Shown here: positions 13,101 to 16,100 of the stretch, one piece after another
Position numbering within the stretch: position 1 is the stretch's first letter
How the letters are laid out: each line of letters opens with the position of its first letter
Source: Octopus sinensis
Taxonomy: Eukaryota
Assembly: GCF_006345805.1 (NCBI RefSeq)
Contig: NC_043012.1
Location: forward strand, 5,518,001 to 5,582,000
Reading direction: 5' to 3'
Length of the DNA: 64,000 nucleotides
Notes under the pieces: model-generated
What the model was told of the DNA's origin: nothing
The model's input: only the letters and a program-made list of their open reading frames with translations
Databases searched by the model: none
Translations under genes and position numbers: made by a program

Positions 13101-16100
13101 GGGCTAGAGTAGAAGACACTTACCCAAGGTTCTGCACAGAGGAACTGAACCTATGACCAAACTTCTTACCACACAGTCATTATATATATATATATATATG
13201 GCCGTTTGCCAGCCCCGTCTGGCACCTGTGTGGGTGGCACGTAAAAAGCACCCACTACACTCACGGAGTGGTTGGCGTTAGGAAGGGCATCCAGCCGTAG
13301 AAACACTGCCAGATCAGACTGGGCCTGGTGCAGCCTTCTGGCTTCCCAGACCCCAGTTGAACCGTCCAACCCATGCTAGCATGGAAAGCGGATGCTAAAT
13401 GATAATGATGATATATATATATATATATATATACACAATGACTGTGTGGTATATATATTCTTTTACTTGTTTTAGTCATTTGACTATAGCCATGCTGGAG
13501 CACTTCCTTTAGCCGAACAAATTGACCTCGGGACTTATTCTCTGTACGTCTAGTACTTATTTCATCAGTCTGTTTGCCGAACTGCTAAGTTCGGTGAAAA
13601 ACTTACAACTGCTATATATTTAGAGATCACTCAAAATATGGAGAGTAAAGTATATTACTAATCATAGCTTTTTAAGGTGGCAAGCTGGTAGAATCATGAA
13701 AATGTGGGACAAAATGTTTAGTGACACTTCTTCCAGTTTTACGTTCTGAGTTCAAATCCCACTATGGTCAACTTGGCTGTTTTTCATTCTTTCAGGGCAA
13801 ATAAAATAAATACAAGTCATTAACTTAACCCCATTCCCTTAAAACTGATGGCTTACTGCTAAGATTTAACACTATTCACCAGAGCCTGCCTTACTTTGGG
13901 CCCTCAGCATCTAATGAAAACATCAGAATGCCATCTTGACACATAGTGTGTCTTGAACATTGTTATATCTACTGAAGGCTGACCCTCTCTAGGTTTGGAC
14001 ACAGCTAAATTCTTCCAGGAAAACTGAAAGACAGAAGGAGAAGAATCAACCATAGAACAGGAATGGCATTTTATTCACTGACTGCCAAAAGGAAGAAAGG
14101 TAAAGTTAACGTTGACAGTACTTGAACTCAGAGCAGAGAACTAGATCAGTTATTACAAGGCAATCTACCTGACATGCTAATGATTTGGCTAATTTGCTCC
14201 CTTACTAACAAATTACTGGAACTACTTTTCAGTGATTTAAGCTTTACTCGATACTCAAACCGTAAAGGGAAAAAATCTGGACTGGAAATCAACATAGCCA
14301 CATATACAACAGGAAGTTGTGGGTAACTTCCAAACTCAATAAATAAATTATACCAAAAAAAAAAGATAAAAGTGGGGAGAAACAGTCTCAGGAATTTATC
14401 TTATTTGGAAACTGACCTTCATAACTCGGATCCTCTTCCAATCTTTCCCTATGTTCAGTCATAGCATTTTCACATCGTTCTTTTAGTAACTCAGCAAGCC
14501 GTTTCAAATCAGTTTCAGATTTTTCTTGTAATTCAGCATCTCGAGATATAGCATCCAGTCTGAAATTTATAATAAATTTACATACGGCCATGTTTGTTAA
14601 CAAGCATAAAAAAAAAGAAAAAGAAGAAAGAAAAAAAAACAAAAAAAACAGCTGTAAGTTAAATTACGCAAAAAAAAAGAAAAAAAAGAAAGAGGTATTC
14701 TATTTCTCGATATTTTCATTGACCTCATTCTGCAATGTAAGAAATTGGTGTAAGAAATCCAGTTTCTTGCTTCTGCAGTATCATCTGTGCCTAATATCTG
14801 AGTTTCTGGATGTGTGCTAATAATTATGGTCAAGGGGTTTAACTTTCATTGATATCTGTAAAACACTAGGCCTGTTAGGAATAGCAGGCAAATCTCTTTC
14901 AAATCGCATCTTACCACATCTAAAAGAAAACACAAGGGCACATTGTATAATGTAGTCTTAGATATGCTATTCCTGAAAAATAAACGAAATGATCACAGCT
15001 GGAAAGTCTTACACGACTGTTTGATTTGGAAGACTTTGGTTAAACAACTTAGCTGTAATTATAGCACCATGGACAAGTACAGCTCAGAACTGTAAACAAC
15101 AAGTAACGGCAACAGTGAGTCCTTATTGACCTATAGTCTACAAAATAACATAGACATAATTTTATATTATTTAACCTTTTTAATACCAACCCATCTGATA
15201 CCATTTGTACTATATAGTCTTCATATTTAAATTAAAATCACAATCAAAATCTCATAACAACATAAATGATACCTTGAGATTTCTGTGAAATAACACCAAC
15301 ATATTATGGAGATGTACTTGCATAGCAAGTGACCTGATCTGAGATCGTGTGCTGGAACGAAAACAATTGCAGCATGGAAGGGGTTTATAAGCTATTTAAG
15401 AAACACACAAAATCCGTTTGATTCACCTCAACATTTAAATTTAATTTGTCAAAATATTTTCGTCGCTTTGAGACCGCGACCTCTTCACTGACAAAATTCC
15501 GTGATGCAGCACCGAATTCTATCAGTGAACAGGTCGCGGTTTCAAAGCGAAGAAAATATTCTGACAAATTAAATTTAAATGTTGAGGTGAATCTAACAAA
15601 TTTTGTGTGTTTCTTAAATAGCTTATAAACACCTTCCACACAGCAACACCATCATAATATATAAGAATATATAACAAAACCATAATAGAGCCAGTACACA
15701 GTCTCAAATTACACACTACAATCTTAAATAAAGAAAAGATACATTAACTCTTTACCCTTTCGATACCAACCCAGCTGAAACTGACTCTGGCTCTGTAGTA
15801 CAAATGTCTGAATTAAAATATTCCACCAAACCTTAGTCCTAACACCAGCTTAATGATAACTAAGTTATTTTACTAAATTCTTTAGTCATATTTAAAATTA
15901 ATTCAAAGAAACACAGAACATCTCAAAATAAATACAGTAACGAAAGGGTTAACATTCAGATTGCTCTGTTTAATGCAAAGCATAGTTATTCACATAGTTT
16001 TGAATTAATCCTGCATTTATTTCATAGTTGTGAGACTTCAATAATGCAGTTGTTTGTTTTTAGAATGACATAGTAGGGTAGGTGTGAGAGGCCAGGATTG

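Follow-up and report, generated by a model that had tools for sequence, protein, structure and literature searches.

We analysed a window of 64,000 nt from Octopus sinensis (contig NC_043012.1, positions 5,518,001 to 5,582,000); all positions below are counted from its first letter. Across the window, P0001 matches 26 exons of a CHD1-like gene, every one of them on the minus strand, and the exon upstream of the intron considered here is 97% identical to Octopus vulgaris CHD1-like. This intron contains an inverted repeat with arms at 15367–15506 and 15507–15646 (Table 1). The initial annotation had described a foldback of two head-to-head repeats, with near-perfect arms about 12 nt apart. The foldback was borne out as two arms of 140 nt, complementary at 125 of 140 places (89%), but the arms abut with no spacer. 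The repeat also proved larger than its inverted arms and asymmetric: the left copy runs on to about 15303. The right arm bears 10 of the 15 mismatches. No further copy of the repeat was found in the 64-kb window.

The foldback has a folding energy of −198 kcal/mol on the plus strand (z −21.8 against shuffles) and −217 kcal/mol on the CHD1 (minus) strand (z −26.5). On the pre-mRNA strand, the predicted hairpin forms 132 of 140 pairs with a longest helix of 42 bp, and 8 of the 15 arm differences break pairs. The long double-stranded RNA that had been proposed for the CHD1 pre-mRNA is thus upheld as a prediction. An Rfam scan returned neither a hammerhead nor any other real match; its top entry, mir-128, scored 23.8 bits against a cut-off of 49 and is explained by the hairpin shape.

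Other features lie in the same window. A different high-copy repeat occupies 15745–15900, from about 100 nt to the right of the palindrome, and has a relative at 3901–4102. LINE-like RT frames at 32469–35101 (minus) and 61768–63149 (plus) are 86% identical, in opposite orientation and 28 kb apart. The frames at 35419–35970 (minus), 58827–59312 (plus) and 60394–61294 (minus) resemble fragments of a Helitron/PIF1-type helicase and of Tc1/mariner transposases. A second, unrelated minimal type I hammerhead, antisense to the CHD1-like gene, is found at 19692–19771 (plus). It belongs to a unit of ~170 nt (about 19660–19830) in another intron of the gene, with (TG)n/(TA)n tracts on either side. Its 3:8 pair is the canonical C3-G8, stem I consists of 5 bp of U/A, stem II is long, helix III is a 6-nt palindrome and position 17 is C. 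This hammerhead was the sole match of a descriptor scan of the window, and its predicted dimer forms helix III between the molecules.

Table 1. Features of the inverted pair and its surroundings (positions in the window).
Feature	Position	Strand	Remarks
Host intron of the CHD1-like gene, GT-AG	14560..16368	−	insertion ~720 nt from donor, ~740 nt from acceptor
Likely target-site duplication, left	15292..15303	+	11/12 identical to 15645–15656 (14/16 if extended); last 1–3 letters overlap the family end
Left copy, near full-length, of the ~210-nt high-copy repeat (solo pseudo-LTR-like unit)	15303..15508	−	lacks ~6 nt of family 5′ end; contig cover from 15301–15304
3′ extension, left copy only, tail-like, 64–66 nt	15303..15368	−	arm complementarity ends at 15367/15646, family cover continues to 15301–15304
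Minimal type I hammerhead motif, CHD1-sense (left copy)	15445..15495	−	7-bp stem I, G3 (15488), G8 (15483; C in the family), extra G, 5-bp stem II, palindromic helix III, U17 (15452)
Fold axis	15505..15508	.	4-nt palindrome TGCA common to both copies; placed by the sequence and family letters at 15503–15508
Right copy, inverted	15505..15644	+	same 5′ start as left copy; ends 83–85 nt past predicted cut site in an AC-rich stretch
Second hammerhead motif, CHD1-antisense (right copy)	15518..15568	+	G3 (15525) and C8 (15530) kept; two stem I pairs and the 10.1-11.1 pair broken; private C17 (15561)
Likely target-site duplication, right	15645..15656	+	partner of 15292–15303

A dispersed octopus repeat

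Our family data are the contigs of public runs that matched each arm at 80% likeness. Twenty of the 24 listed public runs contain part of the stretch, under four organism labels. Matching contigs numbered 5,171–12,609 per run in four runs, counts that include a neighbouring repeat; in another set, two DNA-type runs gave 12,901 and 16,944 and two guessed-RNA runs gave 469 and 1,192. The copy number is roughly bounded at 2,500–85,000, summed depth not being itself a copy number. The repeat is a dispersed family of ~210 nt with thousands of copies.

Contig cover begins at 15301–15304 on the family 3′ side, where the flanks are mixed and AT-rich or (AT)n. On the 5′ side, the loose ends past 15496, 15503 and 15508 have only a few letters in common; about six are shared past 15508, after which the flanks are mixed and do not look like a shared ORF end. 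Among the best matches of run X3, 194 contigs had loose ends on the 3′ side and 216 on the 5′ side. With a unit of ~210 nt and fixed ends, the left copy is therefore nearly whole, and the right copy lacks the last ~65 nt of the family 3′ end. The left copy also holds a frame (15304–15507, minus) of 68 codons, open save one stop, that ends at the family 3′ end. The stop is absent from ~30% of the family (15387 A>G), and a protein search found no relatives of the frame, which is probably open by chance.

Most family copies are single units, not palindromes: the depth that runs through the axis as at our locus was 0.09–0.26% of the depth just inside it. Inverted pairs occur elsewhere in the family. 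Among the 15 joints listed of 45, 10 connect the 5′ region (15477–15508), on the opposite strand, to a partner cut at 15338–15467. We infer that these joints must be head-to-head because the reference has too few letters beyond 15508. All 10 have about single-copy depth, and seven of them were present in both DNA runs. The matches of two unnamed translations, P0035 and P0036, extend over both arms and share roughly one axis; they come from a protein search whose query spanned both arms and so favours palindromes.

A joint of another kind connects 15638 head-to-tail to 15522, with 11 letters between, at a depth of 95 in run X1 and 1587 in run X3. It likely reflects a small, retrozyme-like tandem array (~128 nt) of the hammerhead part. 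Full-unit head-to-tail joints were absent from the 15 joints listed of 45. The two ends of the unit (15303–15318 and about 15503–15514) are weakly complementary, at 9 of 11 places with a gap, and could pair in RNA. Metagenome contigs gave no match to the family pattern; four matched a looser G3-C8 pattern, in line with chance, and none of these folds stems I and II as a hammerhead. As a separate observation, family position 15417 reads C instead of T on the plus strand (A>G in the hammerhead sense) in 8.4% and 8.6% of the depth of the two guessed-RNA runs, versus 0.3–0.4% in the two DNA-type runs. Either A-to-I editing across the family or a single divergent copy with high cover may account for this shift; the contig counts are little enriched.

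At our locus, the duplication flanks the pair as a whole. Pairs of random places, with a slack of ±5, reach 11/12 in 0.06% and 14/16 in 0.035% of cases. Moreover, at three places both arms have the same rare letter where 84–99% of the family differs; the joint chance is 3e-5 to 1e-4 if the places are independent and at most ~1% if they are linked. The shared letters show that both arms came from one template and, together with the flanking duplication, indicate that the pair likely arose in one insertion. At ~5% change per arm and on the scale of PMC13282606, a rough inference puts its age at some 10–20 million years. Cover gaps over the right flank in runs X2, X3 and X6 carry no evidential weight.

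The hammerhead motif and its G3-C8 pair

The hammerhead motifs that had been quoted for the two arms are found in both. The family motif has a 7-bp stem I, G3, C8, an extra G after A9, a 5-bp stem II with G10.1-C11.1 and a 6-nt palindromic helix III. No letter other than G was listed at position 3. C8 makes up 95.3, 97.7, 98.1 and 99.4% of the depth in four runs and U17 99.7–99.9%; U16.1 is present, which completes an NUH cut site. The family core thus reads N3-UGA-N-N8-A plus GAAA, with positions 3 and 8 in a Watson-Crick pair that the left copy (G3/G8) lacks. The identity of the family pair is G3-C8 instead of the canonical C3-G8. Among the listed letters the core is otherwise invariant, save CpG decay at G12 (3–4%). 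The GCGAC strand of stem II has C at 11.1 in 82–93%, stem II variation consisting of CpG decay (3–9%) and 6–10% A at the CpG of 11.1. One place in stem I varies in 19–25% of the family and keeps a U-G pair.

The initial annotation had suggested that GUGAACA, GCGAC and UUC would occur together in the family, and it had combined the two arms into an intact type I fold. The first two motifs do occur together, but UUC is not the family state, which is UUU. The fold, with its 7-bp stem I, G3-C8 pair and extra base after A9, is indeed that of the family, but no mixing is needed: within the motif, position 8 is the only place where the left arm departs from the family type. The 3:8 pair and the stems are retained in the family, whose copies are mostly single units, not TIR-bounded palindromes, which leaves this part of the annotation standing.

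The chance of the motif is roughly 1e-11 per place, and the descriptor scan of 30 shuffled windows returned no strict match and one loose match. Neither arm passes the scan, as expected from their lesions. We found non-CpG family changes at 13 of 142 places outside the motif, at 1 of 42 in its stems and core and at 2 of 9 in loop II. In Fisher tests, p was 0.13 when every change counted, 0.03 when only those that break a pair did, and 0.05 when the 5′ strand of stem I, which is poorly covered, was left aside; over the ways of counting p spans 0.03–0.19, with one CpG-type place and places private to this copy left out. Constraint on the motif is weak and suggestive only. Some changes close to the ends of contigs may have escaped notice, especially in the stem I 5′ strand, and pile-ups give no linked changes and therefore cannot reveal compensatory ones.

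The family motif is predicted to cleave. The contig depth of the family peaks near the predicted cut site, but the contigs give no evidence of cleavage. A family-type dimer is possible in the folding model, although energy does not favour it: at −25.4, the named double-hammerhead dimer is roughly on a par with two named monomers (2 × −12.4), and an alternative dimer fold (−32.3) beats it.

The two copies at the locus differ in their folding. The minimum-energy structure of the left-arm motif (61 nt) has stems I and II (z −2.35; 5 of 200 shuffles were as good), and the motif also folds both stems within its 206-nt context. In the right-arm motif, stems I and II are not formed at minimum energy (z 0.01). 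The C at 15561 is private to the right copy, given U17 in nearly all of the family. The left-copy G3/G8 mismatch is the equivalent of a C3G single mutant. In the hammerhead of anole Poseidon, a Penelope element, C3G alone abolishes cleavage in vitro and the C3G/G8C double mutation partly restores it (PMC11167929), and by this analogy the left-copy motif is likely dead through its mismatch. We infer that both motifs at the locus are inactive. Cleavage by minimal Penelope motifs is poor, takes place in dimers and may require protein (PMC4209133, PMC11167929), and a head-to-head pair cannot supply a same-sense partner for a dimer. Thus, there is probably no catalysis at the locus. The idea that the double-stranded RNA masks the ribozyme is therefore largely moot: the CHD1-sense copy has the G3/G8 mismatch, which leaves little to mask, and the right copy, besides being antisense, has lesions in each of its two stems.

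Origin of the inverted pair

We think it probable that the locus is an old, mutated head-to-head pair of the octopus repeat, likely a single insertion of a Penelope-like solo pseudo-LTR (pLTR), and that the minimal type I hammerhead motif of its family (G3-C8, U17) is predicted to cut weakly as a dimer. The Penelope-type reading, which the initial annotation had proposed, gains support from the unit size, the head-to-head geometry, the flanking duplication, the variable inverted joints and the minimal-hammerhead hallmarks; no link to a Penelope ORF was found. Penelope has pLTRs of 193–218 bp, shorter overlapping inverted pLTRs, duplications of 8–10 bp and a one-sided tail, and its junction palindromes have been interpreted as self-priming on an antisense template (PMC3846280). 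The same insertion features occur in other clades, where (TA)n targets were noted (PMC8557442). The octopus pair likewise combines a ~200-nt unit with a shorter inverted copy at a palindromic junction, a duplication of ~10 bp, an extension at one end and AT-rich or (TA)n targets (PMC3846280, PMC8557442). Variably truncated head-to-head partners, a pLTR trait, are present at the locus, among the listed joints and in P0035 and P0036, and the 11/12 duplication agrees with the ~8–12 bp of pLTRs. The octopus locus differs in that it has no ORF between the repeats, both copies share their 5′ start and the one-sided extension is 64–66 nt versus the 30–40-nt tail described for Penelope.

No RT or GIY-YIG link emerged from three protein searches that used frames crossing the element (none among 18 candidates in each of two; two hits in the third, which we read as translated repeats). 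A 13-letter family motif was also absent from the supplement of PMC8557442, which includes two Octopus Naiad sequences. In anole Poseidon, where the cut site is at 26, RT starts inside the RNA at 111–118 nt of the ORF (PMC11167929). From these values we worked out a start that is AC-rich and ~85–92 nt past the cut site; the end of the right copy, at +83 to +85, is AC-rich too, and the minor tandem joint of the family lies at +77.

A Penelope insertion could have produced the pair as follows. The Penelope RT/endonuclease would nick AT-rich DNA, begin copying at a site inside the unit and proceed almost to the 5′ end of the RNA. There, the new strand would prime on itself or on a partner at a short palindrome, a step borrowed from PMC3846280, and make the inverted copy. 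Repair would leave the 11–12-bp duplication. The arms would then diverge, as they are observed to do at 15 of 140 places, and the locus would end as a neutral intronic relic whose long hairpin may be open to ADAR.

An alternative to which we give a low chance is that the unit is not the pLTR of an autonomous element but a non-autonomous hammerhead retroelement, either a dispersed non-LTR retrozyme monomer or a SINE-like parasite, that borrows the RT of Penelope or another element. The fixed 5′ end, the mixed flanks and the missing ORF link are compatible with this, as is the head-to-tail joint that points to a ~128-nt array, and retrozyme families consist of many monomers and derive from pLTRs (10.64898/2026.07.22.740005). 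Metazoan non-LTR retrozymes (PMC7229834; 10.64898/2026.07.22.740005) are also non-coding, fall in a 150–400-nt class and carry a type I hammerhead. However, they are defined by tandem arrays and have mostly canonical motifs, whereas the octopus repeat is found mostly as single units and inverted pairs with one minor tandem joint; there is no tandem array at the locus and no full-unit head-to-tail joint among those listed. In addition, the unit ends away from the predicted cut site.

We consider it quite improbable that one copy inserted first and that the inverted arm was added later, by replication fold-back or template switch at the locus and independently of the enzyme of the element. The common template shown by the shared rare letters is compatible with this as well, and the right arm carries most of the arm differences. 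However, both copies lie inside the duplication, and other family members also have head-to-head joints in this 5′ region, as in Penelope (PMC3846280).

The single-insertion origin by a Penelope-like element must also be weighed against a DNA transposon of the foldback or MITE type whose terminal inverted repeats are long, in which the resemblance to a hammerhead would be incidental. The 140-nt arms abut, the duplication of 11–12 bp is close to Mutator-type sizes, two other palindromic copies have a similar axis and the two ends of the family are weakly alike. Yet the unit is asymmetric (206 versus 140 nt), the other inverted joints vary in place and the motif is far beyond chance. The rarity of palindromes in the family, where single units prevail, largely refutes a MITE, and we reject it as highly improbable. 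The solo-LTR (TG...CA) reading was discarded too: contigs start at 15301–15304 and not at a TG, and the flanking duplication has 11–12 bp. The available literature on Helenus/Ajax TRIMs proved irrelevant to the repeat.

Least probable of all is that the host has kept the hairpin as regulatory double-stranded RNA for CHD1 (an ADAR platform or siRNA source): the predicted fold on the pre-mRNA strand is strong, the octopus hyper-editing signal is very high and palindromic repeats of the frog are heavily edited (PMC5625713), but the 15 arm differences, 8 of them pair-breaking, fit neutral decay, the element is more than 700 nt from both splice sites and editing of such hairpins is usually a by-product.

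In our main reading, the predicted pre-mRNA hairpin belongs to a class that undergoes hyper-editing in octopus and frog (PMC5625713), and the insertion is probably of no consequence for CHD1.

Relation to known hammerheads

The hammerheads of metazoan Penelope-like pLTRs (PMC4209133) share several traits with the octopus family: the type I order, an extra base between 9 and 10.1, G10.1-C11.1, a palindromic helix III (15.2–16.2), mostly single dispersed copies and opposite-strand pairs 100–700 bp apart. By our own reading of the alignment columns, several of these Penelope motifs also end in U17, as does the octopus family. In contrast, they have C3-G8 with a U3-A8 variant and a stem I of 4–5 bp instead of 7 bp; no ORF link was found for the octopus family. 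The swapped pair of the octopus family is that of the C3G/G8C mutant of Poseidon, another Penelope-type motif, in which single mutants are dead, the double mutant is partly active and protein is required for cleavage (PMC11167929). The Poseidon mutant was made in the laboratory, whereas in octopus the swap is the natural state of a family and comes together with U17. A laboratory G3-C8 variant is reported, in a discussion of the 3-17 mispair, to be more active with G17 than with C17 (PMC3884650), from which we infer that U17 may suit G3, although a G-U wobble could still form.

The only natural 3:8 variant reported in the available part of PMC3088659 is U3-A8. Our text search found no natural G3-C8 hammerhead in print, and nothing relevant on hammerhead ribozymes of octopus; figures and supplements beyond the search may still show one. 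Thus, the insertion structure, as a Penelope by-product, and the type of motif are known, and by this literature text search the family-wide G3-C8 core is new.

We put at about even chances the broader reading that a Penelope-derived family spread to thousands of copies with a working natural rescue-mutant hammerhead, in which the pair is reversed to G3-C8 and U17 avoids a G3-C17 mispair. Searches for CUGANGA would miss such motifs, so that a whole class of animal ribozymes would be uncounted. The locus itself offers a clean, ORF-free example of the head-to-head product. If the G3-C8 family cleaves, a very successful element has naturally fixed what was known as a rescue mutant from the laboratory. 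Selection would then act on pairing between positions 3 and 8, whatever the letters, and families of this kind would be missed by standard descriptors. Cleavage is dispensable for insertion in vitro (PMC11167929), and if the family does not cleave, its conserved inactive fold bears on what Penelope hammerheads are for.
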